Shown here: one piece after another, positions 1,663 through 19,751 of the stretch
Layout of the letters: every line of letters begins with the position of its first letter
Position numbering within the stretch: position 1 is the stretch's first letter
Source: Candidatus Rokuibacteriota bacterium
GTDB lineage: Bacteria; Methylomirabilota; Methylomirabilia; Rokubacteriales; CSP1-6
Assembly: GCA_003221515.1 (NCBI GenBank)
Contig: QHSI01000015.1
Span: 4,895-68,894 of the forward strand
Direction of reading: 5' to 3'
Length of the DNA: 64,000 bases
Translations under genes and position numbers: made by a program
Notes under the pieces: generated by a model
The model's database searches: none
What the model was told of the DNA's origin: nothing
What the model saw: the letters and a program-made list of their open reading frames with translations, nothing else

Positions 1663-3501
1663 TTGAGGGATTGTCGTGCGGTGCGCCGGAGCGCGTGGAT
1701 GGCTCTGGCGGTGGTCGCGTTCCTCACGCTGCTGTCGGTGCTTCCCGCCGTCGCCCAGGATGCCGCCAAGGAGCCCGCGTACCGCGCCTTTCCGCTGATC
1801 GGCTCGCGGCTGGCGGTATGGGCCGTCGCGCAGCTCCACCTGAACTTCGCCGCGTTCATCCTGGGCGTCCCGATCTTCGCCGTGATCATCGAGATCATCG
1901 GCTGGCGGACCGGCGACGCGCGGTACGACTGGCTCTCGCACGAGTTCGTCAAGCTCACGTTCGCCGCGTTCTCCACGACCGCCCTGCTGGGTGCGCTGCT
2001 CCTGTTCCTGTTCGTCGGGTACTATCCCAAGTTTTGGACGTACATGACGTCGATCTTCTTCCCGACGTACTGGGTCTACGCGCTGCTGTTCTTCGCGGAA
2101 ACTTTCACGGTCTACGTCTGGTACTACGGATGGGACTGGCTCAGCGGTCCTCGAAAGGGGATCCACGTCGGCTTGGGCGTGCTCAGCAATCTCTTCGGCA
2201 CCGCGATTCTGTTGGTGGCCAACTCGTGGGTCACCTTCATGATCTCGCCCGCCGGGATCGATGAGTCCGGCGCCCTCAAGGGATCGGTGTGGGCGGCGAT
2301 CAACAACTTCACCTGGATGCCGATCAACATCCACCGGCTCATCGCCAACATCGTGTTCGGGGGCACGATCGCCGCGGCCTACGCGGCCTTCCGCTTCCTC
2401 GGCGCCAAGACCGACGAGGAGCGCGCCCGCTACGACTGGATGGGCTACATCGGCAACTTCGTGGCGTTGTCGGCGTTCATCGTGCTGCCGTTCGCCGGCT
2501 ACTATCTGGGCCGCGAGATCTATGCGTTCAACCAGACGATGGGCATCACGATGATGGGCGGCTTCATGTCGTGGCTCTGGATCATCCAGGCGATCCTGAT
2601 CGGCGTGCTCTTCATGGGCTCGAACTACTACCTCTGGCTCGGCATGGAGCGCATCCCGGGCTCCGAGCGGTACCGCCGCTACGTCCCGATCATGATCGGC
2701 ATCCTCGCCTTCGGGTTCATGGTGTGGGCGACCCCCCGCTCGATGGTGATCACCCTCGACGAGGCTCGCGCGATGGGCGGCACGCACCATCCGGTGCTGG
2801 GCTTCCTGGGCGTCATGTCGGCGAAGAACACTGCCGTCAACATGATGATCCTCACCACGTTCCTGTCGTTCGTCCTCTATCGCCGCGCGAACCGGATCTC
2901 GACCAAGTCGTGGGTCGGTGCTGGGATGATCGTCCAGTGGGTCGCGCTGGGGCTCGCCGCCGTGGTCGTCGTCTTCTACGGCGTGTACGGGTACTTCGTC
3001 GAGTCGATGGTGAGAATAGGGTTCTCGGTCTATCAGGTGCTCGCCGTGCTCGGAGCGATCGGCGTCGTCATGGCCATCGACATCCCAATGTTCAAGGGTG
3101 CCCGCTCGACCGGGACGATCCGGTGGGGGACGATCGCCCCGCGCTCCCAGTACGTGCTGATTCTTCTGGCGGTCACCTTCACCTGGCTCATGGGCCTGAT
3201 GGGCTTCGCGCGCTCCGGCATCCGCCAGCACTGGCACGTGTACGGCGTCATGCGCGACAGCTCGGTCGACGCGGTGACGCCCGCGATCGGCTACGCCGCC
3301 AACATGATCACGATCGTCACGATCGCGTTCTTCGCGCTGGTCATGTTCATCTTCTGGCTCGGCGGCCTCGGCGAGAAGGGGATGGCGGGCGGGTCCGGCC
3401 ACCACGCCCCGGCGCCGGTGTTCGCGGGCGGGAGCGACGCGGATCCCACGCCCGCACCGTCGCGGGAGTCGACAGGGGGCCGGAGCCCCCAGCGCTCCTA
3501 G
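1663..3501 (+). CDS. cytochrome bd-like oxidase subunit I (Nitrospira-type, OR-N-like), no CydB partner
   Basis: Polytopic membrane protein. QLHLNFAAFILG and NIHRLIAN match the CydA heme-ligand His motifs; ARSGIRQHW corresponds to GRQPW. Start may be ATG 1699. Confidence 0.85.
   Translation: MRDCRAVRRSAWMALAVVAFLTLLSVLPAVAQDAAKEPAYRAFPLIGSRLAVWAVAQLHLNFAAFILGVPIFAVIIEIIGWRTGDARYDWLSHEFVKLTFAAFSTTALLGALLLFLFVGYYPKFWTYMTSIFFPTYWVYALLFFAETFTVYVWYYGWDWLSGPRKGIHVGLGVLSNLFGTAILLVANSWVTFMISPAGIDESGALKGSVWAAINNFTWMPINIHRLIANIVFGGTIAAAYAAFRFLGAKTDEERARYDWMGYIGNFVALSAFIVLPFAGYYLGREIYAFNQTMGITMMGGFMSWLWIIQAILIGVLFMGSNYYLWLGMERIPGSERYRRYVPIMIGILAFGFMVWATPRSMVITLDEARAMGGTHHPVLGFLGVMSAKNTAVNMMILTTFLSFVLYRRANRISTKSWVGAGMIVQWVALGLAAVVVVFYGVYGYFVESMVRIGFSVYQVLAVLGAIGVVMAIDIPMFKGARSTGTIRWGTIAPRSQYVLILLAVTFTWLMGLMGFARSGIRQHWHVYGVMRDSSVDAVTPAIGYAANMITIVTIAFFALVMFIFWLGGLGEKGMAGGSGHHAPAPVFAGGSDADPTPAPSRESTGGRSPQRS
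3461..3498. repeat. GC-rich palindromic repeat inside the 3' end of the bd-like gene
   Basis: cgcgggagtcgacagggggccggagccccc closely matches the intergenic copy at 25461-25498. Confidence 0.6.
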
Positions 3502-3502
3502 C

Positions 3503-4303
3503 ATGCGGGTTCCCGTCGCCGTCAAGGTCGGCGCGTTCGCGCTCTTCGTGATGGGCACCTACACGTACTACGCGAACTCGATCCCCCAGATCCAGTCGAA
3601 GCCGCCGGCCGAGCTCTCGCTCGAGGGCGGCAACGTCACCCCGGCTCAGCTCGTGAAGGCCGGCGAAGAGACCTTCAAGACGAAGGGCACGTGCGAGATC
3701 TGTCACCGGATCGGCCAGAAGGGGACTCGCGCGCCCGATCTGGCCGGTATCGGCAGTCGCGCCGGCAAGGTCAAGGCGGGGCAGAGCGCCAAGGCGTACA
3801 TCATCGAGTCGCTGCTCCAGCCGGGCGCTCATCTCGTCGAGGGCTACCCGAACATCATGCCGCAGGTCGACAAACCGCCGATCGCGCTGAACCGCTCCGA
3901 GGTCTGGGCGCTCACGGCGTTCCTCGAGTCGCTCGGCGGCACCGTCGACGTGAAGCTGGACGACATCCCGAAGACCGTGGGCGCGGGCGCGGCGGGCGGC
4001 GGGGCGACGGCCGAGCTGAAGCTGCCCGGCGACGCGAAGGCGGGCGAGGCGATCTTCACCGGCAAGGGCGGCTGCATCGCCTGCCACAAGGCCGGAAAGA
4101 TCGGCGCGTCGCCGGTCGGTCCCGATCTCTCGCAGATCGCGAAGATCCAGACGCCGGACTACCTGATGCGGAAGATCCTCGATCCGGCCGGCGCCGGCAC
4201 CGTGGCCGGATTCCCCAAGGGTGTGATGCCGCCCATGTTCGGTCAGACCCTGACCGCGAAGGACTACATGGACCTGGTCGCGTTCCTGATGACGCTCAAG
4301 TGA
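3503..4303 (+). CDS. membrane-anchored diheme cytochrome c
   Basis: N-terminal TM; CEICH and CIACH, each followed by an MP distal Met motif. Confidence 0.92.
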   Translation: MRVPVAVKVGAFALFVMGTYTYYANSIPQIQSKPPAELSLEGGNVTPAQLVKAGEETFKTKGTCEICHRIGQKGTRAPDLAGIGSRAGKVKAGQSAKAYIIESLLQPGAHLVEGYPNIMPQVDKPPIALNRSEVWALTAFLESLGGTVDVKLDDIPKTVGAGAAGGGATAELKLPGDAKAGEAIFTGKGGCIACHKAGKIGASPVGPDLSQIAKIQTPDYLMRKILDPAGAGTVAGFPKGVMPPMFGQTLTAKDYMDLVAFLMTLK

Positions 4304-4307
4304 GCGC

Positions 4308-5060
4308 ATGAACCTGCTCCGCTCACGTTTCGCCCAGGCCGTCCTGATCCTGATCGTCGCCTTCGTCGTCCTCAAGTTCGGCATTCGGCCGGCGGCGCCG
4401 TGGAGCGTCCTGACGCTCTACATGGCCATCGTGCTGCTCGCGGTGCTGGTGTTCGTGTCCTCCGACTCCGACTCGTGGCGCGACTTCGTGTGGCCGATCC
4501 GCGCGACGCTGGTCGATCCCAACCGGCGCCTGGCGCGGCTCGTGTTCCTGATCGTCCTGCCGCTCCTGTTCGGTTACTACGCGTACACGCAGGCAGCGGC
4601 CAAGCCGCAGGCGCCGCCGGAGCTGCGCGCGGTGCACCCGGCGCCGCCGGCGTCGATCCAGTTCCGCGGCAAGGAGATCCAGATCACCGGGCTCGACAAC
4701 CCGCTGCGCAAGGACCAGGCGAGCTACAAGAAGCACGTCGCCGCCGGCGCGGAGATCTACATCCGCAACTGCATGTACTGTCACGGCGACAACCTCGACG
4801 GCCGGGGTCACTTCGCGCACGGGTTCAATCCGCCGCCGGCGAACTTCCAGGATCCCGGCACGATCGCGATGCTGCAGGAGGCGTTCCTGTTCTGGCGCAT
4901 CGCGAAGGGCGGGCCGGGGCTGCCGAAGGAGTCGACGCCGTGGAACTCGGTCATGCCCGCGTGGGAAGATCGGCTGACCGAGGAGCAGACCTGGCAGGTC
5001 ATCATGTACCTCTACGACGCGACGGGGCAGCATCCGCGCCGGTGGGAAGAGGGGCATTGA
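4308..5060 (+). CDS. membrane cytochrome c (3 TM + monoheme domain)
   Basis: Hydrophobic N-terminal half, CMYCH, SVMPAW. Confidence 0.9.
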   Translation: MNLLRSRFAQAVLILIVAFVVLKFGIRPAAPWSVLTLYMAIVLLAVLVFVSSDSDSWRDFVWPIRATLVDPNRRLARLVFLIVLPLLFGYYAYTQAAAKPQAPPELRAVHPAPPASIQFRGKEIQITGLDNPLRKDQASYKKHVAAGAEIYIRNCMYCHGDNLDGRGHFAHGFNPPPANFQDPGTIAMLQEAFLFWRIAKGGPGLPKESTPWNSVMPAWEDRLTEEQTWQVIMYLYDATGQHPRRWEEGH

Positions 5061-6514
5061 TCGCCAGGCCCCTCGCCGTCGTCGCGGCCGTCGCGCTCGC
5101 GCTGGGCGCCGCGCCGTCGCGCGCCGCCGCGCAGGCGGGCGACGCCACCGCCGGCAAGGCGGTCTACGAGCGACGGTGCGCAGGCTGCCACGGCGAGAAG
5201 GGGGACGGCAAGGGCCCGGCCGCCGACCTGCTCGTCCCGAAGCCCCGCGACTTCACGATGGGCCTCTACAAGATCCGCACCACCGCCAACAAGGTGCCGA
5301 CCGACCAGGATCTCTTCCGCATCATCACGGACGGGATGCCCGGGACCTCGATGCCGGCGTGGGCGGTGCTCACCGAGCGCGAGCGCTGGAACGTGCTCGC
5401 GTACATCAAGACCTTCGCGGGCGAGAAGCTCAAAGAGGCGCCCAAGAAGGTCGAGCTACCGAAAGACGTCCCGTCGTCCGAGGCGTCGATCAAGCGCGGC
5501 AAGGAGATGTTCGAGGCGATCGAGTGTCACAAGTGCCACGGCACCGACGGACGCGGCGACGGACCCTCCCGCGCCGAGCTCAAGGACGAGTGGGGGAACC
5601 CGATCGCGCCGGCGAACCTCACCAAGCGGTGGACCTTCCGCGGCGGCGCGAGCCGGACCGAGGTCGCCACGCGCCTGGCCAACGGCGTGCTCGGCACGCC
5701 GATGCCCGCCTTCCTCGACAGCGTCGAGAAGCCCGAGGACATCTGGCACCTGACGAACTTCATCCAGTCGCTCGGGCCCGACTCGCCCCACTACGCGACG
5801 CTCGTCACCGTCACCGCGGTGACCGGCGCGATCCCGGACGATCCGAACGCGGAGTTCTGGAAGAAGCTCACGCCCAACAACATTCCGCTGATGGGGCAGG
5901 TGATCGTCGACCCGCGGAACTTCAACCCGGCGATCGACCTCGTGGCGGTGCGCGCCGCCTATAACGACCAGGCGATCGTCTTCCACCTGACGTGGGACGA
6001 TCCGACGCAGTCGGCCGACGAGCCGGCCAAGAAGCTCTTCGCCGACGCGATCGCGCTCCAGTTCCCGCCGCAGATCACCGCGGGACCGGAGCGCCCGTAC
6101 TTCCTGATGGGCGACGGCTCCGACGCCGTCTACCTGCTGCGCTGGGAGAACGGCAAGGGCGTGAGCGAGGCGAGCGCGAACGGCCCGGGCAAGATCGCGG
6201 CGATCGCCGGCGGCGAAGCGCGCGGCAACGCGGTGTTCACCAACGGCCAGTACCGGCTCGTGATCACGCGCCCGCTCGTATCGAAGGACGCGACGCGCCC
6301 GACGTTCACGCCCGCGGTGTTCGTGCCCGTCGCGTTCCAGGCGTGGGACGGCGGCGCGGGGGAGACCGGGACCAGGATGTCCGTGACCTCGTGGTACTAT
6401 CTGCGGCTGGAGGAGCCGCAGTCGAACCGCCGTTTCGTCATTCCTCCCGTCGTGGCAATCCTCACGCTGGCGGCGATGCTGGTCGTGGTGCGAATTGCGA
6501 AGGGGCGGGCATAA
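5057..6514 (+). CDS. diheme cytochrome c fused to an ethylbenzene-dehydrogenase-gamma (EB_dh/DOMON) heme-b domain with C-terminal TM
   Basis: TTG start overlaps the upstream stop; signal peptide; CAGCH, CHKCH; WDDPT..DAIALQFP..PYFLMG..AWDG motifs. Confidence 0.85.
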   Translation: MIARPLAVVAAVALALGAAPSRAAAQAGDATAGKAVYERRCAGCHGEKGDGKGPAADLLVPKPRDFTMGLYKIRTTANKVPTDQDLFRIITDGMPGTSMPAWAVLTERERWNVLAYIKTFAGEKLKEAPKKVELPKDVPSSEASIKRGKEMFEAIECHKCHGTDGRGDGPSRAELKDEWGNPIAPANLTKRWTFRGGASRTEVATRLANGVLGTPMPAFLDSVEKPEDIWHLTNFIQSLGPDSPHYATLVTVTAVTGAIPDDPNAEFWKKLTPNNIPLMGQVIVDPRNFNPAIDLVAVRAAYNDQAIVFHLTWDDPTQSADEPAKKLFADAIALQFPPQITAGPERPYFLMGDGSDAVYLLRWENGKGVSEASANGPGKIAAIAGGEARGNAVFTNGQYRLVITRPLVSKDATRPTFTPAVFVPVAFQAWDGGAGETGTRMSVTSWYYLRLEEPQSNRRFVIPPVVAILTLAAMLVVVRIAKGRA

Positions 6515-6539
6515 TCTTGAACTCAGAAGGAGCGGGACA

Positions 6540-7238
6540 ATGCGCAGGGCATTGACAGCAGTCGTGGCGGTCGCGCTCGTGGCCGGCGTCGTTTTCGTCG
6601 CCCACCGACCGGATCAGGCCGGAGCGCAAGGCGGTGGGACGATCGAAGCGGCGGTGACGTTCGCCGGCGCGCCGGTCATCGAGAAGCTCAAGGTGAACAA
6701 GGACACCGAAAAGTGCGGAACCGAGACGGCGATCGAGAAGGTCGTCGTCGGCCCCAACAAGGGGCTCGCCTACGCCGTGGTCTCCGTCGCCGGCGCCAAG
6801 GGCGCAGCGACCGCGAAGAAGGCGACGATCGACCAGCACGGCTGCAAGTTCGTGCCGCACGTCCAGGCGATGACGCCGGGCGAGGTCGAGATCAAGAACT
6901 CCGACGACATCCTGCACAACATCCACACCTACTCGACCGCCAACGCCTCCATCAACAAGGCGCAGCCGAAGTTCAAGAAGGTGATGACCGAGAAGTTCGA
7001 GAAGCCCGAGATCATCAAGGTCACCTGTGACGTCCACAGCTGGATGCTCGGGTGGGTCGCCGTCATGCCCCATCCGTTCTTCGGCGTGACCGACGCCAAC
7101 GGCGCGACCAGGATCGAGAACGTGCCGCCCGGCAAGTACAGCGTCGAGGTGTGGCACGAGACGCTCGGCAAGCAGACGAAGGAGGTCGAGGTCAAGGCCG
7201 GGCAGACCGCGAAGGTCGCCATCGAGATGAAGAAGTAG
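6540..7238 (+). CDS. exported cupredoxin-like/carboxypeptidase-regulatory-like domain protein
   Basis: SD AGGAG, signal peptide, DQHGCKFVPHV, HNIH, CDVHSWM, VWHETLG. Confidence 0.8.
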   Translation: MRRALTAVVAVALVAGVVFVAHRPDQAGAQGGGTIEAAVTFAGAPVIEKLKVNKDTEKCGTETAIEKVVVGPNKGLAYAVVSVAGAKGAATAKKATIDQHGCKFVPHVQAMTPGEVEIKNSDDILHNIHTYSTANASINKAQPKFKKVMTEKFEKPEIIKVTCDVHSWMLGWVAVMPHPFFGVTDANGATRIENVPPGKYSVEVWHETLGKQTKEVEVKAGQTAKVAIEMKK

Positions 7239-7259: not shown

Positions 7260-8021
7260 ATGCTTGACTGGTGGCTACCAGAGAACGTTTCGACCTACGG
7301 CCAGGAAATCGACTGGCTCTTCCACCTCATCTATTACATCACCGGCGTGACGTTCATCCTGGTCTTCGCCACGATGCTGGCGTTCATCGTGATGTACCGG
7401 GACCGTCCGGGCCGGAAGGCGCGCTACACCCACGGCAACACCACGCTGGAGATCGTCTGGACGGTGGTGCCGGCGCTGATTCTCGTGATCCTGACGCTGC
7501 TGAGCGTCCCGGCGTGGTCGAAGATCAAGATGACCATGCCGGAGACGGACTTCATCGTGCAAGTGACCGCGAAGCAGTTCAACTGGCAAATCACCTATCC
7601 CGGCCCCGACGGGAAGTTCGGCACCGCCGACGACAAGACGCTCCTCGACGAGATGCACGTGCCGGTCAACAAGATCGTCCGGGTCCACCTGAAATCGCAG
7701 GACGTCATCCATAGCTTCTTCGTCCCGCAGTTCCGGATGAAGCAGGACGCCGTACCGGGCCGCGAGATCAAGCAGTGGTTCGAGGCGACCAAGCCCGGCA
7801 AGTACGAGCTGCCGTGCGCCGAGCTGTGCGGGTTCGGCCACTCCGGCATGCGCGGGTGGATCTACGTCCACACCGCCGACGAATACGCGAAGTGGGCGGC
7901 CCAGAACCTGACCGCGGAGGCCGCCCCGACGACCGAGGCCAAACCCGACGACAAGGCCGACGCGAAGAAGGAAGCGCCGGGCAAGGCCGAGCCCAAGAAA
8001 GAGGGGAAAGCCAAGAAATGA
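7260..8021 (+). CDS. coxB: cytochrome c oxidase subunit II
   Basis: Two TMs, DVIHSF, CuA motif CAELCGFGHSGM; Lys-rich tail; no fused cytochrome c. Confidence 0.96.
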   Translation: MLDWWLPENVSTYGQEIDWLFHLIYYITGVTFILVFATMLAFIVMYRDRPGRKARYTHGNTTLEIVWTVVPALILVILTLLSVPAWSKIKMTMPETDFIVQVTAKQFNWQITYPGPDGKFGTADDKTLLDEMHVPVNKIVRVHLKSQDVIHSFFVPQFRMKQDAVPGREIKQWFEATKPGKYELPCAELCGFGHSGMRGWIYVHTADEYAKWAAQNLTAEAAPTTEAKPDDKADAKKEAPGKAEPKKEGKAKK

Positions 8022-9769
8022 GCGCCCATAGCGCGACCGCTCACGCGCACGTCGACCACGCCCGCCACGAGCTCGGCTTCGTGCGGACGTACATCTTCTC
8101 GACGGACCACAAGATGATCGCCCGCCAGTTCCTGTTCCTGGGCCTGTTCATGATGATCATCGGCGGCCTGCTCGCGCTGATCGTCCGCTGGCAGCTGGCC
8201 TGGCCGGAGACGGCGGTGCCCGGTCTCGGTGGCATCCTCAAGGAGACCGGCGGCATCCTGGAGCCCAGCACCTACAACATGGCGTTCACCATGCACGCCA
8301 CGATCATGATCTTCTTCGTGATCATGCCGATCCTGGCCGGCGCCTTCGGGAACTTCTGCATTCCGCTGATGATCGGCGCGCGCGACATGGCGTTCCCGTT
8401 CCTCAACATGCTGTCGTTCTGGGTGACCGGCAGCGCCGGCATCATCATGCTCTCCGGCTTCTTCGTGGAGGGCGGGCACGCCGCGGCCGGCTGGACCTCC
8501 TACGCGCCGCTCTCGGCGGTCGCGTCGTACACCGGCGTGAACTGGGGCCAGAACATCTGGTGCATCAGCCTGTTCATCATGGGTGTCGGTTCCATGATGG
8601 GCTCGATCAACTACATCACGACGATCATCAACATGCGGGCGCCGGGGATGAAGCTGTTCCGCATGCCGCTGGTGGTCTGGTCGCTGTTCATCACCGCGAT
8701 CCTGCTTCTGCTGGCCCTGCCGGTGCTGACCTCGGGCGTGGCCATGCTACTGTTCGACCGCACGCTCGGCACCAACTGGTTCAAGCCGGCTGGCGGCGGC
8801 GAGCCGCTGCTGTGGCAGCACCTCTTCTGGTACTTCGGCCACCCGGAGGTCTACATCCTGATCCTGCCGGCGATGGGCATCGCGTCGGAGATCCTGCCGG
8901 TCTTCTGCCGCAAGCCGATCTTCGGGTACCACGCGATGGCCTTCTCGATGATCGGCATCGCGTTCCTGTCCTGGATCGTCTACGGCCACCACATGTTCGT
9001 CAGCGGTATGAGCCCGGCGCTTGGGATGGCCTTCACGGTCACCACGATGATCATCGCGGTGCCGTCGGCCATCAAGACCTTCAACTGGCTCGGGACGATG
9101 TGGGGCGCGCGTATGCAGTTCACGGTCCCGATGCTGAACGCGCTGGCCTTCGTCTCGATGTTCGTCATCGGCGGGCTTTCGGGCATCTTCATGGCCTCGA
9201 CGCCGGTCGACATCTACATTCAGGACACGTACTTCATCGTGGCGCACATCCACTACGTGGTCTTCGGCGGCTCGATCTTCGGCGCGTTCGCCGCGATCTA
9301 CTACTGGTTCCCGAAGATGTTCGGCCGGATGACCAATCCCTTCCTCGGCCACCTGCACTTCTGGGGCACGTTCGTCTTCTTCAACCTGACCTTCTTCCCG
9401 ATGCACATCATCGGCGTCGGCGGCCAGATGCGCCGGATCTACAACCCGACGCAGTACGAGTTCCTCGTGCACCAGCAGGGCTGGAACGTGTTCATCACGT
9501 ACAGCGCGCTCCTCCTCGGCGTCTCCCAGATCCCGTTCGTCATCAACTTCTTCTGGTCGCTCTTCGCCGGGAAGCCGGCTCCGCTGAACCCGTGGAACGC
9601 CAACACCCTCGAGTGGACGGCGCCGTCGCCGCCGCCGCACTTGAACTGGGGCCCGACGCTGCCGACGGTGTACCGCGGACCCTACGAGTACAGCTCGCCG
9701 GAGTCCAAGGAAGACTTCCTCCCGCAGAACGTGCCGCCAGTGGGCGCCGCGGGAGCGCGGCGGCACTGA
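8018..9769 (+). CDS. coxA: cytochrome c oxidase subunit I, A1 type
   Basis: STDHK, TMHAT, GARDMAFP, GHPEVY, YGHHMF, VAHIHYV; ATGA overlap with coxB. Confidence 0.97.
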   Translation: MSAHSATAHAHVDHARHELGFVRTYIFSTDHKMIARQFLFLGLFMMIIGGLLALIVRWQLAWPETAVPGLGGILKETGGILEPSTYNMAFTMHATIMIFFVIMPILAGAFGNFCIPLMIGARDMAFPFLNMLSFWVTGSAGIIMLSGFFVEGGHAAAGWTSYAPLSAVASYTGVNWGQNIWCISLFIMGVGSMMGSINYITTIINMRAPGMKLFRMPLVVWSLFITAILLLLALPVLTSGVAMLLFDRTLGTNWFKPAGGGEPLLWQHLFWYFGHPEVYILILPAMGIASEILPVFCRKPIFGYHAMAFSMIGIAFLSWIVYGHHMFVSGMSPALGMAFTVTTMIIAVPSAIKTFNWLGTMWGARMQFTVPMLNALAFVSMFVIGGLSGIFMASTPVDIYIQDTYFIVAHIHYVVFGGSIFGAFAAIYYWFPKMFGRMTNPFLGHLHFWGTFVFFNLTFFPMHIIGVGGQMRRIYNPTQYEFLVHQQGWNVFITYSALLLGVSQIPFVINFFWSLFAGKPAPLNPWNANTLEWTAPSPPPHLNWGPTLPTVYRGPYEYSSPESKEDFLPQNVPPVGAAGARRH

Positions 9770-9786
9770 TCGGGGTGGAGAGCGCG

Positions 9787-11723: not shown

Positions 11724-11818
11724 CGACCGACACCCGCAACCGACAGACCGTTCGCGTGCTCCTCACGATCGTGGCGGTGCTCATGGTGGCGGCGTTCCTC
11801 GTCGGGATCCGCTGGTGA
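11720..11818 (+). CDS. 32-aa single-TM microprotein (oxidase small assembly/accessory protein candidate)
   Basis: MTTDTRNRQTVRVLLTIVAVLMVAAFLVGIRW*. ATGA overlap with ctaB and GTGA overlap with coxC. Below the ORF-track size cutoff. Confidence 0.8.
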   Translation: MTTDTRNRQTVRVLLTIVAVLMVAAFLVGIRW

Positions 11819-12486: not shown

Positions 12487-12749
12487 GAGCGGGAGTCCTC
12501 GTCGCGCTCCTGCTCATGCTGGCGCCGCGGTCGGCCCAGGCGTGCGCGACGTGCATCGCGTCGCCGTTCGGGGACCAGACCTACACGTGGCCGTACCTCG
12601 GATTGATCTTGCTCCCCTTCGTGCTGCTCTCGGCCGTGCTCGGCATCTTCGCCCACTCCGCCGGCTATCGCCCGCACGTCCTGGCGCGTCGGCTGGCAGC
12701 TCGCGTCTCGGCCAAAGACGACTCTCAGATCATCAAGGAGACGACATGA
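12483..12749 (+). CDS. small exported membrane protein with N-terminal CxxC after the signal peptide
   Basis: MRAGVLVALLLMLAPRSAQA|CATC, one TM, ATGA overlaps at both ends. Confidence 0.75.
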   Translation: MRAGVLVALLLMLAPRSAQACATCIASPFGDQTYTWPYLGLILLPFVLLSAVLGIFAHSAGYRPHVLARRLAARVSAKDDSQIIKETT

Positions 12750-13363
12750 GTCACGTAGCCTCGGCGCATGGGGCGGTGGAGCCCGCCGAGTCGCCCCTCA
12801 CGCCCGAAAGCTGGGGAAAGCTCGGAATGTGGATCTTCCTCGCCGGCGACGCGGTCGGCTTCGGCACGCTCCTGGCCGGTTACGGCGCGATGCGGGCCAC
12901 CAGCGCCGACTGGCCTTCGCCGTTCGCGGTTCTCGGGATCAACCTGACGGCCGCCATGACCTTCCTGCTGATCTGCTCGAGCGTGACGATGGTGAAGGCG
13001 CTCGAGTGGCTGGGCAAGGGGGACAAGGAGCGCGCGAAGGCGTTTCTCTTCTTCACCGCGCTCGGCGGCGCGATCTTCGTCAGCCTGCAGGCGTACGAGT
13101 GGTCGCATCTGATCCACCGCGGCCTGCTCATCAGCGGCAACCCGTGGGGCGCCGCCCTCTTCGGCGCGTCCTTCTTCATCGTGACCGGCTTCCATGGCCT
13201 GCACGTCACCGGCGGCGTCATCTATCTGCTGGCGATATTGCGGGCCGTCGCGAACCGTCCCGAGCCGGCGGCCAGCTACAACGCGGTCGAGATCGCCGGG
13301 CTCTACTGGCACTTCGTCGACCTCGTCTGGATCATGGTGTTCACCTTCATGTACCTCCTGTAA
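12746..13363 (+). CDS. coxC: cytochrome c oxidase subunit III (second copy)
   Basis: KLGMWIFL, TGFHGLHV, GLYWHFVDLVW; SD AAGGAG. Confidence 0.93.
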   Translation: MSHVASAHGAVEPAESPLTPESWGKLGMWIFLAGDAVGFGTLLAGYGAMRATSADWPSPFAVLGINLTAAMTFLLICSSVTMVKALEWLGKGDKERAKAFLFFTALGGAIFVSLQAYEWSHLIHRGLLISGNPWGAALFGASFFIVTGFHGLHVTGGVIYLLAILRAVANRPEPAASYNAVEIAGLYWHFVDLVWIMVFTFMYLL

Positions 13364-13375: not shown

Positions 13376-13705
13376 ATGGCGACGGCAGAGCACAAGCATC
13401 CGAACTACATGGCGATCTTCTGGTTCCTCGCGATCCTCACCGTGGTCGAGATCGCGGTGATCTACATGCCGCTGGCGAAGTTCACGATCGGCGTGCTGCT
13501 GTGCGCGCTGGCGCTCGGCAAGGCGACGATGGTCGCGATGTATTTCATGCACCTCCGCTTCGAGGCTCGCACCCTCGGCATGATCGCGGTCGTGCCGTTG
13601 CTGATCGCGACGCTCCTGATCTTCGTCCTGCTGCCCGACGGCTTCGCGGTCATGAAGCGGACGGTCGGCGTCAAGCCGGCCGCGACCGAGCCCGCCAAGC
13701 ACTGA
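13376..13705 (+). CDS. coxD: cytochrome c oxidase subunit IV
   Basis: LAILTVVE, KATMVAMYFMHL; 3 TMs. Confidence 0.9.
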   Translation: MATAEHKHPNYMAIFWFLAILTVVEIAVIYMPLAKFTIGVLLCALALGKATMVAMYFMHLRFEARTLGMIAVVPLLIATLLIFVLLPDGFAVMKRTVGVKPAATEPAKH

Positions 13706-13736: not shown

Positions 13737-14105
13737 GTGGACTCCGGGCGTTTGGTCGACCGGCTCGTCCCGGCCCTGCGACGGGCAGCGCGTCTGCGCT
13801 GTCCCCGCTGCGCGGGCGCGCCGCTCTTCCGTACCTGGACTTCGATGGCCGACGCGTGCGCCCTGTGCGGGCTCCGCTTCGAGCGGGCCCAGGGCTACTT
13901 CGTCGGGGCGATCTACATCAACTACGCGGTGACGGTGCTCGTCGCGATCGTCGGTTTCCTCCTCTTGTGGGGCATCGCGGGCTTCTCGACACGAGGGCAG
14001 CTTGCGGTGCTGGTGCCGCTGGTCGCCATCTTTCCATTGTGGTTCTTCCGTTACAGCCGGAGCTTCTGGCTCGCCGTCGAGTGGTCGATCAACCCCGAGT
14101 CCTGA
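13737..14105 (+). CDS. DUF983-like zinc-ribbon membrane protein
   Basis: CPRC..CALCG, GYFVGA, two TMs. Confidence 0.75.
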   Translation: MDSGRLVDRLVPALRRAARLRCPRCAGAPLFRTWTSMADACALCGLRFERAQGYFVGAIYINYAVTVLVAIVGFLLLWGIAGFSTRGQLAVLVPLVAIFPLWFFRYSRSFWLAVEWSINPES

Positions 14106-14116: not shown

Positions 14117-14863
14117 GTGGGCGCGATCGTCGCGTTCCTCGGGCTGCTGCTCACCGCCGGCCCGCTCGGCGCCTACGAGGCGGTCACGGTCAAGGACGGC
14201 GGCACGATTGCGGGCGTCGTTCGCTTCGCCGGCGCGCCGCCCAAGCTCGGCGCGATCCCGGTCAACAAGAACCGCGACGTCTGCGGCGACGAGAAGCCGT
14301 CGGAGGCGCTGGTGGTCGGGGCCGACCGCGGCGTGCGGGACGGCGTGGTGCTGATCGAGGGCGTGGCCCGCGGCAAGAAAGGCGCTGGCGACGTCATCCT
14401 CGACAACCGGAAGTGCCTGTTCGTGAGCCACGTGACCGTGGTGGCGCCCGGCGATCGCGCGCGCGTGCGCAACTCGGATCCGATCCTCCACAACACGCAC
14501 GGATTCCTGGGCCAGCCCACCGTCTTCAACCTGGCGCTGCCGAACAAGGACCAGATGATCGACATCACGAAGCGGCTGCAGAAGCCGGGGGTGGTCCGCG
14601 TGGTGTGCGACGCGCACCCGCACATGTTCGCGTGGATGATCGTGCACGACAGCCCGTACGTGGCGGTGACCGACGACAGGGGCGCGTTCCGCATCGGCGA
14701 CGTCCCGCCCGGGACGTACAAGGTCACCATGTGGCACGCCGGATACCGGCCCAAGGGATCGGACAAGGACGGCCGGCCCGTCTACGACGAGCCGAAGACG
14801 CTGACGAAGGAGCTGACGATCGCGCCGAAAGCGACGGTGACGGTCGAGTTCGAACTGAAATAG
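14117..14863 (+). CDS. second exported cupredoxin-like/carboxypeptidase-regulatory-like protein
   Basis: Paralogous to 6540-7238: DNRKCLF, HNTH, CDAHPHM, MWH. Confidence 0.8.
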   Translation: MGAIVAFLGLLLTAGPLGAYEAVTVKDGGTIAGVVRFAGAPPKLGAIPVNKNRDVCGDEKPSEALVVGADRGVRDGVVLIEGVARGKKGAGDVILDNRKCLFVSHVTVVAPGDRARVRNSDPILHNTHGFLGQPTVFNLALPNKDQMIDITKRLQKPGVVRVVCDAHPHMFAWMIVHDSPYVAVTDDRGAFRIGDVPPGTYKVTMWHAGYRPKGSDKDGRPVYDEPKTLTKELTIAPKATVTVEFELK

Positions 14864-14874: not shown

Positions 14875-16785
14875 ATGTTCAAGCACATCTGCGTGCCGGT
14901 GGACAACTCGGAGTATTCGAACCGGGCGATCGACCTGGCGGTCGAGCTGGGTCGGCCGGGCGGGGCGAAGCTGACCGGCGTCCACGTGTACGCCGCGCGG
15001 CTGCACGATTACCGGTTCAAGCAGATGGAGTACACGCTGCCCGAGGAATACAAGGACGAGAACGAGCTCGAGCGCCAGCGGAAGATCCACGACTCGCTGA
15101 TCGCCATGGGGCTCCAGCTCATCTCCGAGTCGTACCTGGACGTGATGGCGCGCAAGGCCGGCGCGGCCGGGCTCGCCTTCGAGTCCAAGATGATCGACGG
15201 CAAGCACTACAAGGTGCTCATCGACGACTGCCTCGCCGCCGACTACGACCTGGTGGTCATGGGCGCCCTGGGGATGGGCGCGGTCAAGGACAGCCAGCTC
15301 GGCTCGGTCACCGAGCGGTTCGTCCGCCGCGTGTCGCGCGACACGCTCATCGTCCGCAACACCGACGCGTTGAAGGACCAGCAGGGGCCGATCGTCGTGT
15401 GCCTCGACGGCTCGCCGCAGTCCTTCAACGGCCTCCAGCTCGGCGTCGGAATGGCGAAGGCGCTCGGCCGGCCGCTGCAGGCGGTGGCGGTCTACGACCC
15501 GTACCTCCACTACGCGATGTTCAACGGCATCGTCGGCGTGCTGAGCGAGAAGGCATCGAAGATCTTCCGCTTCAAGGAGCAGGAGCAGCTGCACGAGGAG
15601 ATCATCGACACCGGATTGGCCAAGATCTACCAGTCGCACCTGGAGATCGGCCGCAAGCTCGCCGCCGACTCCGGCGTCGAGCTGGCCATCACGCTCCTCG
15701 ACGGCAAGTGCTTCGAGAAGATCCTGACGTTCGTGCGCAAGGAGCATCCCTGGCTCCTCATCCTGGGGCGGGTGGGCGTGCACTCGGACGAGAACGAAGT
15801 CGATCTCGGCTCCAACACCGAGAACCTCCTGCGGCTGGCCCCGTGCAACGTGCTGCTGACCGGCGGCAAGTTCTATCCGCCGCTCGACGTGAAGGCCGAG
15901 GAGATCATCTCCTGGACCGAAGAGGCCGAGGCCCGGATGGAGCGGGTGCCGCTGCAGGTGAAGGGCGTGGCGCGCACGGCGCTGCTGCGGTACGCGATCG
16001 AGCAGGGGCACACCGTCATCACCAACAAGGTCATCGACGAGGCGATGGCGATCTTCATGCCGACCCGCCTGGCCGAGCGCATGCAGATCCTCGCCGAGGA
16101 CGTCGCGGTCGCGAAGCTGCGGGCCGAGTCCCAGCCGGCGACGGCCATCTGCTCCATCTGCGGCTACACGGTCAAAGGCCCGAACCCGGTCGTCACGTGC
16201 CCGGTCTGTCGCGCCGGCGCCGACAAGTTCCAGGTCATCTCGAAGGAGACGGTCGAGGCGATCGCCGCTCAGGAAGGCGGGATCGAGGAAGAAGAGTCGA
16301 TGCCCGGTGTCCAGGTGAAATGGTCGGCCGACGCGCGCGACGCCCTGCGCGAGGTGACCGACGCGTACCTTCGCCGGCGGGCCAAGGCCCGGATCGAGAA
16401 GTACGCGCGTTCGCGCCGGATCCCGGTCATCACCTGCCAGCTGGCGCTGCCGATGATCGAAGAGACCGTCGGGCGCGACAAGCTCGGCGCGGGCTGGGAT
16501 ACACTCCTGGCCAAGACCAAGTTCGAGCCCGCCGAGATGCCGAGCGCCCCCGCGCCGGCCGGCGGCGGCCCGGGCTTCGGCTGGACGGACGAGGCCACGG
16601 CGCGCCTGAACCGCGTGCCCGCTGGGTTCATGCGCGATATGACGCGCGAGGAAGTCGAGCGGGTGGCGGGCGCTAAAGGTGTCACGACCATCGACCTGGC
16701 GGTTTGCGAAGAAGGCATCGGGCATGCCCGCGAGACGATGAACGAGGTCATCGCGGGGTACGTGTCGAACAAAAAACCGCGATAG
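14875..16785 (+). CDS. tandem universal-stress-protein domains + three PCP_red-like domains + rubredoxin-like domain
   Basis: SD GAGGGGG. MFKHICVPVDNS and VVCLDGS USP starts; GALG-x9-GS ATP motif; W(T/S)xxA helical repeats at about 15913, 16321 and 16582; CSIC..CPVC. Confidence 0.85.
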   Translation: MFKHICVPVDNSEYSNRAIDLAVELGRPGGAKLTGVHVYAARLHDYRFKQMEYTLPEEYKDENELERQRKIHDSLIAMGLQLISESYLDVMARKAGAAGLAFESKMIDGKHYKVLIDDCLAADYDLVVMGALGMGAVKDSQLGSVTERFVRRVSRDTLIVRNTDALKDQQGPIVVCLDGSPQSFNGLQLGVGMAKALGRPLQAVAVYDPYLHYAMFNGIVGVLSEKASKIFRFKEQEQLHEEIIDTGLAKIYQSHLEIGRKLAADSGVELAITLLDGKCFEKILTFVRKEHPWLLILGRVGVHSDENEVDLGSNTENLLRLAPCNVLLTGGKFYPPLDVKAEEIISWTEEAEARMERVPLQVKGVARTALLRYAIEQGHTVITNKVIDEAMAIFMPTRLAERMQILAEDVAVAKLRAESQPATAICSICGYTVKGPNPVVTCPVCRAGADKFQVISKETVEAIAAQEGGIEEEESMPGVQVKWSADARDALREVTDAYLRRRAKARIEKYARSRRIPVITCQLALPMIEETVGRDKLGAGWDTLLAKTKFEPAEMPSAPAPAGGGPGFGWTDEATARLNRVPAGFMRDMTREEVERVAGAKGVTTIDLAVCEEGIGHARETMNEVIAGYVSNKKPR

Positions 16786-16919
16786 GCGCGGGAGAGGGGG
16801 CGGGGGGCCTCCCGGAATCCGACTGCCGCTCCGCGCAGCGGGCCAATTTACATGCGCTTGATCAGGACGACGCTGACTACACGGATTCCGGGAGGCCCCG
16901 CGCCCCCTCTCCCGCGCCT
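16784..16919. mobile_element. MITE/REPIN-like element with 38-bp terminal inverted repeats
   Basis: 16784-16821 versus reverse complement of 16882-16919: one mismatch in 38 bp; 60-nt core. Confidence 0.65.
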
Positions 16920-16969
16920 CCATGGATCCCGACGACTGAGCCCCGCGTGCCTTCACCCACGTCTTACAC

Positions 16970-18472
16970 GTGACTGATCCAGCGTCCGATCACATCGCTG
17001 CTCGCACCGGCGTCCCGACTTCGGCGGCTGCCGCGCCGCCTTCAGCGTCGGCGAGCGCGCAATCGTCGGCGTCGCCCGGCGCGCAATCATCGGCCGCGCC
17101 GGCGGGCGCCGTGAATCCGTATACGGCGTATAGCGTGTCGTGGAATTTGACTCAGCGCTGCAATCTCGAGTGCGCGCACTGCTACATGTCGGCGTTTGCT
17201 GGGGCCGATACGCGGGGGGAGCTCGGGACCGACGAGTGCCGGCGGGTGATGGACGAGATTGCGCGGGTCAATCCGCACGTGTTCTTGATCCTGACGGGCG
17301 GCGAGCCACTGTTGCGGAAGGACATTTGGGACGTGGCGGCGTACGCTGCCGAGAAGCGGTTCACGACCGTGTTCGGAACGAACGGCCTCCTGCTGCGTGA
17401 GAAGGAAGCCGCCTGTATGCGCGAGCACGGTGTGCTCGGCGCTTCGATCAGTCTGGATTCGACCGACCGTGTGAAGCACGACGCGTTCCGCCATCTGGCC
17501 GGCGCCTGGGACGGAGCGGTGCGGGCGACCCGCGTGCTGACCGACGCCGGCCTCGATTTCTCCCTGCACATGTCGGTGACCGACTGGAACGTCGCCGAGG
17601 TCCCCGCGATGATCGACCTCGCGAAGGAGCTCGGCGCCAAGGTGCTGAACTTCTTCTTCCTGGTGCGGACCGGTCGCGGTCGAGACCTCACCGACATCGA
17701 CGCCGCCGCGTACGAACGCATCCTGACGTACCTGGCGCGCACGCAGGGTGTCGGCACGGAACCGCCGTCGTTCGTGAAGCGGATGCTCGGGATGGGCGGC
17801 GGCGCGTCGGAGAAATTCGAGGACCCGTGGTCGCTGCCGGTCGGGCGCGCCGACGGGCTGCTGATCCGCGCCAAGTGCGCGCCGCACTTCCGGCGCGTCC
17901 TCTACCAGATGAACCCGTCCTCTCCGCTCCTCATGAACTACGCCCACGGCTCGTGTCCGGCCGGGAAGTACTATTGTCGAATCACGCCCGAGGGCGACGT
18001 CACGCCGTGCCCGTATATGCCGGTGTCGGCGGGGAACCTGCGCGAACGGTCCTTCGACGATCTGTGGCGCGGCGCGCCGGTGTTCGACGACCTGCGCGAC
18101 CCCAAGCTCGGTGGACGCTGCGGCGCCTGCGAGTTCTCGAAGCTCTGCGGCGGCTGCCGCTGCCGCGCCTACGCGACCCACGGCGACTACCTGGCGGAGG
18201 ATCCCGCGTGCGGCTATCAGCCGGGCGCGCACGGCGGCCGGCTGATCGACGTGCCGGCGTCGCTCACGTTCGGGCTGCCGCCCGACTATCAGTTGGAGTG
18301 GGCCGAGGACGCGCGCGAGCGGCTGCACGCGATTCCCTCGTTCGCGCGCGGGATGGTGGTGAAGGCCGTCGAGGTGTACGCGCGTGGCCGCGGCGAGACC
18401 GTCATCACGAAGGAGCTCCTCGCCGACGTCCGCTCCAAGTGGGGCGGCCGCTTCCGGCCGTCGTCGCCATGA
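16970..18472 (+). CDS. radical SAM/SPASM protein, AhbD/NirJ-like, with C-terminal PCP_red-like domain
   Basis: WNLTQRCNLECAHCY, TGGEPL, CAPH, CPAG..TPCPY, CGAC..CGGCRCRAY..DPAC; tail WAEDARERLHAIPSFARGMV. True start may be GTG 17111. Confidence 0.88.
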   Translation: MTDPASDHIAARTGVPTSAAAAPPSASASAQSSASPGAQSSAAPAGAVNPYTAYSVSWNLTQRCNLECAHCYMSAFAGADTRGELGTDECRRVMDEIARVNPHVFLILTGGEPLLRKDIWDVAAYAAEKRFTTVFGTNGLLLREKEAACMREHGVLGASISLDSTDRVKHDAFRHLAGAWDGAVRATRVLTDAGLDFSLHMSVTDWNVAEVPAMIDLAKELGAKVLNFFFLVRTGRGRDLTDIDAAAYERILTYLARTQGVGTEPPSFVKRMLGMGGGASEKFEDPWSLPVGRADGLLIRAKCAPHFRRVLYQMNPSSPLLMNYAHGSCPAGKYYCRITPEGDVTPCPYMPVSAGNLRERSFDDLWRGAPVFDDLRDPKLGGRCGACEFSKLCGGCRCRAYATHGDYLAEDPACGYQPGAHGGRLIDVPASLTFGLPPDYQLEWAEDARERLHAIPSFARGMVVKAVEVYARGRGETVITKELLADVRSKWGGRFRPSSP

Positions 18473-18897
18473 TGGACAGATTTCGGCTCGCCGCCCACGC
18501 GTACCGGACCTACGGCGTGATCTACTGGATCGGCGGCTTCTATCTCATCTGGCACGGAGTCGGGGTCCGAGGCGGTCGCACCGCGGACTCGGGCGTCGTC
18601 TGGATCGTGCTGGGGCTCGTCTTCATCGTGGTCATCCCGTATCTCCTCGCCCAGCGCCGCGCGTGGTTCGAGCGCTGGATCGTTTCGCGCCGCGATTTCG
18701 CCCGCATCCTCGTCGCGTTCATGGCCTGGCGAGCCTGGCATGTCCTGAAGGTCGTGATTCGCCCGGAGACCGCGCGCGTGTCCGCGCCCTGGGGGGGTGA
18801 GATCACCTTCCGCGTCGGCGCCTGTGTGTTCCTGATCGTGACCGTGGCCGCGTTGCTGGTGATCGCTCGGGCGGCCTGGGCGACGGAAGCCGCATGA
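18469..18897 (+). CDS. hypothetical 4-TM membrane protein
   Basis: ATGA overlaps on both sides; hydrophobic segments. Confidence 0.7.
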   Translation: MMDRFRLAAHAYRTYGVIYWIGGFYLIWHGVGVRGGRTADSGVVWIVLGLVFIVVIPYLLAQRRAWFERWIVSRRDFARILVAFMAWRAWHVLKVVIRPETARVSAPWGGEITFRVGACVFLIVTVAALLVIARAAWATEAA

Positions 18898-19751
18898 AGC
18901 GATACCGGGACATCGCCGGTGACGGTGGCTCCAACATCGTGGGCCAGGTCGAGGCCCAGCTCGGCAAGCTCCGGCAGCGCCTCGCCTCCGTCGGCGCGGT
19001 CGTCGCCGTGGTCTCCGGCAAGGGCGGCGTGGGCAAGTCGACGCTCGCCGCGAACCTCGCCTGCTGCCTGGCGCTCGACGGCTCCCGCGTGGGCGTCCTC
19101 GACGCGGATCTCAACGGCCCGACGCAGGCCAAGGTGCTGGGGGTCCGCGGCCGGCGGCTGGTCGTGACCGACGAGGGCGTCGAGCCGCCGCGCGGCGCGC
19201 TCGGAGTCAAGGTCATGTCGATGGACCTGCTGCTGGCCGCGGACGCCACGCCCCTCACGTGGGACGCGCCCGTCCAGGACGAGGCCCACACCTGGCGCGG
19301 GACCGTCGAAGCGAACGCGATCCGTGAGTTCCTGGCCGACACGAACTGGGGCACGCTGGACGCGCTCGTCCTCGACCTGCCGCCGGGCACCGACCGGCTT
19401 CTGACGATCGCCTCGCTGGTGCCGACGCTCGGTATCGTCATCGTGACGATCCCGTCCGACGTGTCCCACCTGGTCGTGCGGAAGTCGATCACGGTGGCCG
19501 CGCAGACGAAGTCCCCGGTTCTCGGACTCGTCGAGAACATGGCCGGACTCTTCCCGGGCCCCGACGCGGCGAAGCTCGCCGCGGACGGCGGGATCCCGTA
19601 CCTCGGGAGCGTGCCGTTCGATCGCGAGCTCGCCGTCTCCGCCGATCGGGGAGAGCCGCTGGTCGCCACGGCGCCGGAGCGTGAGTCGGCGCGCGCGCTG
19701 CAGCTCATCGCGCGCGCGATTCGCGCCGCGCTGGCGCCGCGCGCGGTGTGA
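18894..19751 (+). CDS. Mrp/NBP35/ApbC-family P-loop ATPase lacking the CxxC motif
   Basis: SGKGGVGKST, DADLNGP, WRG, DLPPGT, VENM followed directly by AGLFPG. Confidence 0.88.
   Translation: MKRYRDIAGDGGSNIVGQVEAQLGKLRQRLASVGAVVAVVSGKGGVGKSTLAANLACCLALDGSRVGVLDADLNGPTQAKVLGVRGRRLVVTDEGVEPPRGALGVKVMSMDLLLAADATPLTWDAPVQDEAHTWRGTVEANAIREFLADTNWGTLDALVLDLPPGTDRLLTIASLVPTLGIVIVTIPSDVSHLVVRKSITVAAQTKSPVLGLVENMAGLFPGPDAAKLAADGGIPYLGSVPFDRELAVSADRGEPLVATAPERESARALQLIARAIRAALAPRAV

Follow-up and report, generated by a model that had tools for sequence, protein, structure and literature searches.

A bd-like oxidase module set within an aa3 oxidase operon of Rokuibacteriota and Gemmatimonadota

The window analysed here comprises 64,000 nucleotides of contig C26 (QHSI01000015.1, positions 4895–68894) from a Candidatus Rokuibacteriota genome of 5.1 Mb (191 contigs, 95.4% complete). 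At 1663–19751 it carries an operon of 19 genes, all on the plus strand, in which a four-gene module built around a relative of the cytochrome bd subunit CydA (g01–g04) precedes a complete set of A-family (aa3) oxidase genes and a conserved accessory set. The CydA relative, g01, belongs to the published 'bd-like oxidase' type (OR-N; TO_1; the alternative NxrC, or alt-NxrC, cluster), as compared by descriptions, and its OR-N subfamily is probably OR-N2; sequence comparison supports the view that it is not a canonical quinol-oxidising CydA. Tentatively, and at somewhat less than an even chance, we read the module as a reductase fed by cytochrome c and copper proteins, with O2 as the most likely substrate, that would share its tethered donors with the aa3 oxidase. 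The module of bd-like protein, alternative NxrC, two cytochromes and cupredoxins is itself already known. The present analysis adds the conservation of its core, its linkage to cox genes by phylum, its co-occurrence with a radical SAM enzyme, the complex III content of its carriers and a model of the g01–g03 complex.

The gene for g01 (1663–3501) encodes a protein with a signal-like N terminus, 13 hydrophobic spans and no CxxCH motif. Translation from the TTG codon at 1663 gives 612 residues; a start at the ATG at 1699 (600 residues) is likelier, and an Atlas record begins at residue 13. The protein matches PF01654 (56 bits) and no NCBIfam family. It is the only PF01654 match in the genome, which makes it the single CydA-like gene, and a search of the genome with PF02322 (CydB) gave no match, the same model having matched in nine named genomes as a control. 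Against E. coli CydA, hhalign (90% probability) aligns helices 1–4 only (residues 8–152), and HMMER with the g01 family profile aligns 14–196 only (helices 1–5); nothing of E. coli CydB aligns to that profile. No stretch of g01 is alignable to the Q-loop region of E. coli CydA (Lys252, Glu257), the corresponding part being filled by hydrophobic spans, although a missing alignment does not prove the absence of any quinol site in g01. The missing cydB and the unaligned Q-loop region speak against a canonical quinol-oxidising CydA, which the earlier note had named as the finding that would undo its proposal.

Residue conservation in g01 was counted over 81 rows from the loci described below and 30 distant representatives. 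H59, the counterpart of E. coli His19, is kept in 80/81 rows and 28/30 representatives, and E146, the counterpart of Glu107, in 81/81 and 22/30. H224, which stands at the start of the fifth span near E. coli His186 (81/81 and 28/30), coincides exactly with the aligned histidine in 9r2g_A, and is one residue off in 5doq_A and four off in E. coli. As a group, H59, E146, H168, H224, H376, M385 and H525 are kept in 80 or 81 of the 81 rows and in 22–29 of the 30 distant representatives. M385 is a candidate, by position only, for the b558 ligand Met393; K388 is also conserved, as are W355, T357, P358, E367 and H376 in the span and loop region 311–379. Like canonical cytochrome bd (CydABX; E. coli 6RKO-type; Geobacillus thermodenitrificans 5doq), g01 has a putative pocket in helices 1–4, the equivalents of His19 and Glu107, the W-D and A-N-x-W motifs and a histidine at the start of helix 5. 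Unlike it, g01 has no CydB partner, no alignable Q-loop or helices 6–9, a tyrosine in place of Glu99, 13–14 helices instead of nine, and c-type cytochromes as partners. What g01 appears to retain of cytochrome bd is the di-haem pocket, with putative haem binding, and one proton-path glutamate.

The genes that follow g01 encode c-type cytochromes and not CydB, as the earlier note had observed, and the five CxxCH motifs that it counted fall as two, one and two in g02, g03 and g04. The first of these proteins (g02, 3503–4303) is a membrane-anchored dihaem cytochrome c (CEICH, CIACH; PF00034 71 bits; TIGR02603 73 bits), and the second (g03, 4308–5060) has three hydrophobic spans and a monohaem cytochrome c domain (CMYCH; PF00034, PF13442). 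The third (g04, 5042–6514; CAGCH, CHKCH; PF00034, PF13442, PF09459) has a signal peptide and a C-terminal membrane anchor, and joins a dihaem cytochrome c to an NxrC-like EB_dh haem b domain. The dihaem part of g04 matches Protein Data Bank (PDB) entry 6h5l_B (181 bits) and the haem b part 7b04_C, subunit C of nitrite oxidoreductase (NXR), with E 4.9e-9. The TIGR03477 score of g04, 107.7 bits, is below the cut-off of 169.85, and g04 is the sole carrier of an EB_dh domain in the genome. In three of the 26 loci examined, all of Methylomirabilota type, g03 and g04 form a single open reading frame (ORF) of 727–752 residues (L019:12545–14725, L020:12552–14807 and L022:12610–14844), a natural fusion which argues that both are subunits of one complex.

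Two cupredoxin-like proteins accompany the cytochromes. The first, g05 (6540–7238), is anchored and carries a CarboxypepD_reg-like domain (PF13620 37 bits, in the C-terminal domain only); its N-terminal domain has no Pfam cupredoxin match, and the best PDB hint, 5u7n_A, is weak (E 0.84). Putative type-1 copper ligands in that protein, His126 and Cys163-x2-His166-x2-Met169, are invariant in all 20 aligned sequences, and the Cys-x2-His-x2-Met spacing is that of a type-1 copper loop. The second, g15 (14117–14863; PF13620), is a paralogue of g05 (36% identity) with the same His/Cys/His/Met columns and the same spacing.

A conserved gene set in Nitrospina, Nitrospira and Kuenenia was described by Lücker et al. 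in 2013 (PMC3578206). Its bd-like oxidase has 14 helices, three of which replace the Q-loop, and is encoded together with an alternative NxrC, two cytochromes c (one monohaem, one dihaem), a zinc-finger protein and a pair of cupredoxin-like proteins. The authors of PMC3578206 float both 'not a canonical oxidase' and 'alternative complex III / reverse flow'. The bd-like cluster ranks within the 40 most transcribed genes in the study of Mundinger et al. 2019 (PMC6606698). In the Nitrospira moscoviensis version bd-like_3 stands with alt_NxrC_2. In Nitrospira, Nitrospina and Kuenenia the homologous cluster is found alongside NXR genes (PMC3578206, PMC6606698). The same composition recurs as TO_1 in a Manganitrophaceae preprint (10.1101/2021.11.15.468770), at the 98th expression percentile in an aerobe with a poorly expressed cbb3 oxidase. 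Murali, Gennis and Hemp (10.1101/2021.01.16.426971) defined OR-N, in which OR-N1 and OR-N2 have 14 helices and OR-N2 is often a lone gene, and argued that the di-haem site defines the bd superfamily.

The module matches the PMC3578206 set and TO_1 of Manganitrophus. This agrees with the earlier note's mention of bd-like proteins with c-type cytochromes in Nitrospirota; the module is not new. As in the OR-N/TO_1 type, a lone CydA-like gene encodes about 14 helices with a CydA-like N-terminal part, no Q-loop and no CydB, and monohaem and dihaem cytochromes c, an NxrC-like periplasmic haem b protein and cupredoxin-like proteins lie nearby. The nearest ESM Atlas clusters to g01 are commonest in Nitrospirota; its nearest homologues, among the 120 matches listed, are those of Rokubacteria/Rokuibacteriota (Methylomirabilota), with 84–93% identity. 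Unlike the clusters of nitrite oxidisers and anammox bacteria, the module stands in a genome without NXR or any type II dimethyl sulfoxide (DMSO) reductase, it has its NxrC-like domain fused to a further dihaem cytochrome c, and A-family oxidase and haem a synthesis genes are placed between the two cupredoxin genes. A search of the literature for a bd-like/aa3 operon, or for a link between bd-like proteins and radical SAM enzymes, found no description of either among the papers listed, one query being too broad to inform.

A model of the g01–g03 complex, a check proposed in the earlier note, was computed with a 10-sequence alignment (A2) for g01 and a 24-row alignment (A3) for g03. The scores are 0.78, 0.84 and 0.82 (median 0.82), against 0.00 for the best of three controls; the partner has a predicted local distance difference test (pLDDT) score of at least 77, and the runs share at least 55% of contacts. 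Among solved complexes 116 of 157 reach the mark for such models, and among mismatched pairs 2 of 215 do; these counts are rough as applied to the alignments used here. The predicted interface is formed by residues 26–57 (second span) and 152 of g03 with residues 311–379, 492, 494 and 522 of g01. In the hydropathy map, g01 311–379 corresponds to spans and a periplasmic loop after the sixth span, the location of the Q-loop in CydA. The model supports docking of the membrane anchor of the monohaem cytochrome on the extra helices of g01, and favours binding without demonstrating it. To our knowledge, no complex of this kind has been solved.

The operon continues with the aa3 oxidase, whose genes from coxB through the DUF983 gene lie between g05 and g15. 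Subunit II, CoxB (7260–8021; PF00116, PF02790; TIGR02866 175.8 bits, cut-off 147.7), has a CuA motif, no CxxCH motif and no cytochrome c domain. CoxA (8018–9769; PF00115 506.6 bits), the A-family haem-copper oxidase subunit I, has the GHPEVY stretch and scores 631 bits with TIGR02891, slightly under the cut-off of 670.75. They are followed by the haem a synthase gene ctaA (9775–10800; PF02628 47.5 bits), the haem o synthase gene ctaB (10767–11723; UbiA family, PF01040 173.5 bits), two genes for subunit III-like proteins, coxC1 (11815–12486; PF00510 78 bits) and coxC2 (12746–13363; PF00510 64.5 bits), and the subunit IV gene coxD (13376–13705; PF03626 45.3 bits). The set is complete, with subunit I, subunit II with CuA, two of subunit III, subunit IV and both haem synthases. 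The order coxBA-ctaAB-coxC-coxC-coxD given in the earlier note is borne out for every gene in it; the list omits the two cupredoxin-like genes, a gene for a DUF983 zinc-ribbon membrane protein (13737–14105; PF06170 38.8 bits, cut-off 22.6) and an ORF of 88 residues between the two coxC genes (12483–12749). This small ORF, which overlaps both coxC genes by four bases and has no family match, encodes a signal-like start, a Cys-x2-Cys motif and one membrane span, and has tblastn matches of 42–84% identity in seven Rokubacteria loci (L009–L011, L013, L017, L025 and L083). Other oxidases are encoded elsewhere in the genome: contig C101 (L091:9389–12877) carries a second A-family oxidase with fused subunits I and III plus subunit IV, and contig C100 (L092:4539–7755) carries a cbb3-like oxidase that has two cytochrome c domains fused to its FixO-like subunit and a Caa3_CtaG gene as its neighbour.

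The earlier note's figure of about 20 same-strand genes with many overlapping starts and stops is close to the 19 counted. Overlaps of four bases occur at five junctions (coxB/coxA, coxC1/small ORF, small ORF/coxC2, the radical SAM gene g17/g18 and g18/the mrp gene g19); g03/g04 and ctaA/ctaB also overlap, given the start codons chosen here. The gaps between g04 and g05 and between g05 and coxB are about 20 nucleotides each, and the widest intergenic gaps in the operon are 91 nucleotides (11724–11814) and 184 nucleotides (16786–16969). A scan of the plus strand of the operon for intergenic terminator-like sites found none. The operon is flanked upstream by a minus-strand FtsH gene and downstream by a minus-strand ORF (19968–20711).

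Conservation of the arrangement was followed in a scan of species-representative genomes with alignment A2, which gave at least 624 loci with a relative of g01; the 19 window proteins were searched by tblastn against the best 80 of these. Of the 62 loci that offer 5.2 kb or more of room, 61 have the core g02-g03-g04 after g01; in the remaining one, L044, the search did not detect g02. Where the room is at least 9 kb, coxB and coxA lie directly downstream in 37 of 53 loci. This check of synteny, proposed in the earlier note, shows the link to the cox genes to be conserved in two phylum-level clades. The link is present in 8/8 loci labelled Rokuibacteriota, 25/25 labelled Gemmatimonadota and 3/4 labelled Methylomirabilota, the one without it being L019 (NC10 CSP1-5), a basal NC10 locus. 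It is also present in 1/4 unlabelled loci. It is absent from all nine Acidobacteriota loci (three of which have a cox gene elsewhere in the locus) and from the single loci of Myxococcota, 'Cyanobacteriota' and Rhodothermota (0/1 each). Recurrence of the same arrangement in other genomes and phyla puts it far beyond chance. A FastTree phylogeny of 111 g01 rows has three phylum-coherent clades with no resolved backbone between them, so one origin of the cox link cannot be told from two. Within the family of the window's organism, orthologous coxA tracks g01, being found in 0/13 genomes of genus g11 and 0/6 of genus g18 (genus labels, distinct from the gene names). In deeper lineages the bd-like and aa3 parts are separable, since eight genomes of families f5 and f6 (G003, G004, G016, G019, G021, G026, G028 and G029) have the orthologous coxA (72–77% identity) and no g01. 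A Myxococcota metagenome-assembled genome (L028, 3400–15500) has two divergently oriented copies of g01–g04 plus a cupredoxin, placed back to back, with no cox genes within reach.

The last five genes of the operon form a conserved accessory set and do not encode respiratory subunits. Following g15, g16 (14875–16785) encodes a cytoplasmic protein with two Usp domains (PF00582 125 bits), a rubredoxin-like domain (PF21349) and PCP_red domains (PF08369 96 bits, in three stretches). Next comes g17 (16970–18472; PF04055, PF13186, PF08369), a radical SAM/SPASM enzyme with a PCP_red tail common to it and g16. The operon ends with g18 (18469–18897), a small membrane protein of 142 residues with two hydrophobic spans and no family match, which is matched in L019 at 40% identity, and g19 (18894–19751), an Fe-S cluster carrier ATPase of the Mrp/ApbC/NUBPL type (PF10609 216.5 bits; NF041136 209 bits, below cut-off). 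The best NCBIfam scores of g17 are 302.8 bits with TIGR04055 (NirJ2) and 297.2 bits with TIGR04545 (AhbD), both under the cut-off of 500. Among radical SAM/SPASM families, g17 scores best against the haem b synthase AhbD and the NirJ/NirJ2 enzymes of haem d1 synthesis; it differs from them in falling under the equivalog cut-offs, in its extra PCP_red tail and in a distribution that follows the bd-like gene and is not that of a housekeeping gene.

In three phyla g16, g17 and g19 accompany g01, on differing sides, and they travel with g01 and not with cox. In Rokubacteria the accessory genes sit behind the cox genes, and in Gemmatimonadota immediately upstream of g01, where g19, g16 and g17 are each found in 17/17 loci with 9 kb on both sides. 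In Acidobacteriota the accessory genes lie downstream of g04 (g16 in 5/7, g17 in 3/7 and g19 in 4/7 loci). Co-occurrence was counted over 170 Methylomirabilota genomes of at least 85% completeness, with g01 taken at E≤1e-20 and g17 at E≤1e-80. Cross-tabulated by hand, g01 (106/170) and g17 (103/170) occur together in 97 genomes; nine have g01 only, six g17 only and 58 neither. Genera g11 and g18 lack both genes (each 0/13 and 0/6), and in genus g7 genome G080 alone has either, and has both. In about 50 of the 97 genomes with both, by hand count, the two lie on one contig, 3–16 kb apart. These counts describe a pattern and are not a test, as related genomes are not independent. The tallies include genomes flagged as unpublished (G026, G033, G052, G145 and G146), on which the conclusions do not depend, except that G033 is named below among two carriers. 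A role of g17 as the organism's sole haem b synthase was rejected on this distribution and on a ChdC-family gene on contig C34, which means that g17 is not the sole possible coprohaem decarboxylase.

The checks for complex III and cydB proposed in the earlier note gave no cytochrome b (PF00033, PF13631) and no cydB in the genome, and a complete-looking ActA-ActB-ActC-ActD set of alternative complex III (ACIII) on contig C34, not adjoining cox genes; ActB, NrfD-like ActC and ActD were looked for among the operon genes and none was found there. ActD is present in 141 of the 170 Methylomirabilota genomes, including all the genera without g01 (13/13 of g11 and 6/6 of g18), and cytochrome b in 92. 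One or the other occurs in 104 of the 106 g01 carriers, the exceptions being G073 (92% complete, 500 contigs) and G033 (87% complete), and ActD occurs in all five carriers from other phyla (four Gemmatimonadota, one of them of the Longimicrobiales, and one Acidobacteriota). Nearly all carriers thus already have a quinol-to-cytochrome c step. The module as a stand-in for a missing complex III was rejected on this gene content, which likewise gives no backing to the earlier note's placement of the module where bc1 or ACIII stands in other operons. In the Acidobacteriota genome G173 (that of L052), the module is bracketed by ActD matches at about 2.848 and 2.883 Mb, each some 18 kb away, which suggests a respiratory gene island.

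In the reading that we tentatively prefer, the operon would be one respiratory unit with two electron sinks. The products of g01–g04 would form a membrane complex of the bd-like oxidase (OR-N/TO_1) kind, in which the CydA relative retains the four-helix di-haem pocket, extra helices replace the quinol loop and the g03 anchor sits on those helices. Electrons would be supplied by c-type haems and blue copper and not by quinol, pass to a b558-like haem and reach the di-haem site, where O2 or a related small oxidant would be reduced. The same tethered cytochromes and cupredoxins would also feed the adjacent aa3 oxidase, in which subunit II lacks a cytochrome c domain, and electrons would pass from quinol to cytochrome through the ACIII encoded on another contig. 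For the bd-like protein, a dedicated haem-finishing or haem-delivery set may come from the Usp/PCP_red, AhbD/NirJ-like radical SAM and Mrp genes. In this scheme haem binding, the course of the electrons, the identity of the substrate and what the accessory genes do are inferred. The scheme is favoured by the observation that the part of g01 still alignable to CydA is the catalytic part, and the quinol-loop part is not. It also draws on the g01–g03 model, the fusion of g03 with g04, the constancy of the four-gene core, the ACIII or cytochrome b found in nearly all carriers, the radical SAM gene that tracks g01, the expression of TO_1 and the view of Murali et al. on the di-haem site.

Several points weigh against a cytochrome-fed oxidase. 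It is unusual for one operon to encode two oxidases. Operons in which an oxidase is joined to a quinol-oxidising module are common, and gene order alone therefore favours an input module. We know of no haem content, activity or structure for any bd-like (OR-N) member. The position of E. coli Glu99 is occupied by tyrosine (Y139) in 81/81 rows and 27/30 representatives, and counterparts of Met393 and Glu445 are not assignable in g01 from sequence. A homologous cluster also occurs in strictly anaerobic anammox bacteria (PMC3578206, PMC6606698), which argues against O2 reduction as its universal role. Transcription was checked in four soil RNA-library runs from four studies, with the operon split into 30 bins. 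Some coverage is present in all 30 bins in X2, X8 and X10 and in 29 in X6, and the matching contigs are short (about 170–450 nucleotides) and mostly 88–95% alike, which points to relatives. One contig spans the coxB/coxA junction (X10 record 3) and one, 100% identical, the g15/g16 junction (X2 record 14); such contigs cannot show a single transcript, strand or level, and the libraries may contain DNA.

The alternative that survives best, which we nonetheless rate as rather unlikely, makes the bd-like complex an input module that oxidises quinol at a new site, or otherwise collects membrane electrons, and hands them on, via the c haems (five in all), the haem b domain and the cupredoxin, to the CuA site of aa3, in the manner of ACIII and within a dedicated supercomplex. 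Quinol modules combined with haem-copper oxidases in operons or supercomplexes are established in ACIII–caa3, actinobacterial bc–aa3 and archaeal SoxM with the blue-copper sulfocyanin. The present operon resembles these in its order of membrane redox module, small carriers and coxB-coxA, and in a subunit II without a donor domain, and that order (bd-like, c, c, c/b, cupredoxin, coxB, coxA) holds in all 33 Rokuibacteriota- and Gemmatimonadota-labelled loci with room. The joint presence or absence of g01, orthologous coxA and the radical SAM gene by genus in the window's family (0/13 in g11, 0/6 in g18) fits an input module as well, as do operon logic and the occurrence in anaerobic anammox bacteria. 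Unlike the established systems, however, the membrane module is here a bd relative and not NrfD/ActC or cytochrome b, the same genome has a separate ACIII, and the module has no recognisable quinol site, its conserved part being the putative di-haem pocket. ACIII or cytochrome b is already present in 104/106 carriers and in 5/5 from other phyla, genera lacking the module have ActD equally often, the Acidobacteriota loci have the module but no cox genes beside it (0/9), and the eight f5/f6 genomes have orthologous coxA without the module. The bd-like complex as a third, as yet unrecognised type of quinol:cytochrome c/cupredoxin oxidoreductase, in an obligate hybrid supercomplex with the aa3 oxidase and with a haem tailored by the radical SAM enzyme, is a proposal that we regard as unlikely; if true, it would mean that a bd scaffold had been turned from a terminal oxidase into a mid-chain coupling site.

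It is improbable that the NxrC-like domain of g04 docks a periplasmic dehydrogenase whose electrons go to the aa3 oxidase or uphill to the quinone pool, a reverse-flow idea that follows the proposal for the homologous cluster beside NXR. The resemblance of the EB_dh domain to NXR subunit C (7b04_C, TIGR03477) and the position of the Nitrospira, Nitrospina and Kuenenia clusters with NXR genes would suit it. The genome, however, holds no type II DMSO-reductase catalytic subunit (best TIGR03479 match 153 bits, cut-off 984.75) and no EB_dh domain apart from that of g04, and no candidate periplasmic dehydrogenase partner for g04 was found in the conserved neighbourhood of the g01 loci. There is a similarly slim chance that g01 is a non-catalytic scaffold, an anchor or assembly platform for cytochromes and cupredoxins that feed the aa3 oxidase. 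The loss of Glu99, the predicted interface with the cytochrome anchor and the tight cox linkage in two phyla are in keeping with a scaffold, whereas the conserved H59, E146, H168, H224, H376, M385 and H525 would be difficult to account for if no cofactors were bound, Acidobacteriota retain the module in the absence of neighbouring cox genes, and a dedicated haem-type accessory set co-occurs with g01. That an independent bd-like module and an aa3 oxidase merely lie side by side, neither co-transcribed nor coupled, would accord with RNA contigs too short to demonstrate co-transcription and with the separability of the two systems in deeper lineages, but is very improbable in view of the identical order and tight spacing in 33/33 loci of two phylum-level clades, the gaps of about 20 nucleotides on either side of g05 and the scan that found no intergenic terminator-like site.

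In nitrite and manganese oxidisers, genes for bd-like (OR-N) proteins rank with the most strongly expressed of the respiratory genes. Here the four-gene module, with cupredoxins and the radical SAM set, is fixed in an aa3 operon of widespread soil heterotrophs (Rokubacteria and Gemmatimonadota), and its occurrence without nitrite oxidoreductase means that it is separable from nitrification. The module's alternatives, a second oxidase or an input module, are testable, and organisms and gene sets are now identified for a functional question that has stood since 2010. Genome surveys of these phyla that count 'cytochrome bd' may be including proteins other than quinol oxidases. One Gemmatimonadota survey (PMC9426454) reports 'cytochrome bd' in 53% of 326 genomes, with petB in 23% and ACIII in less than 10% by KEGG, and no mention of bd-like proteins was found in the sections of it available.

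Beyond the operon, the window from 20 to 64 kb holds otherwise ordinary-looking metabolism and ABC transport genes. At 29855–34259 the gene for a dCache-HAMP-GAF histidine kinase precedes one for a response regulator with a fused adenylate/guanylate cyclase domain. At 62763–63998 a B12-binding radical SAM gene, preceded by an MptE-like gene and an ABC exporter gene, is cut by the end of the window.

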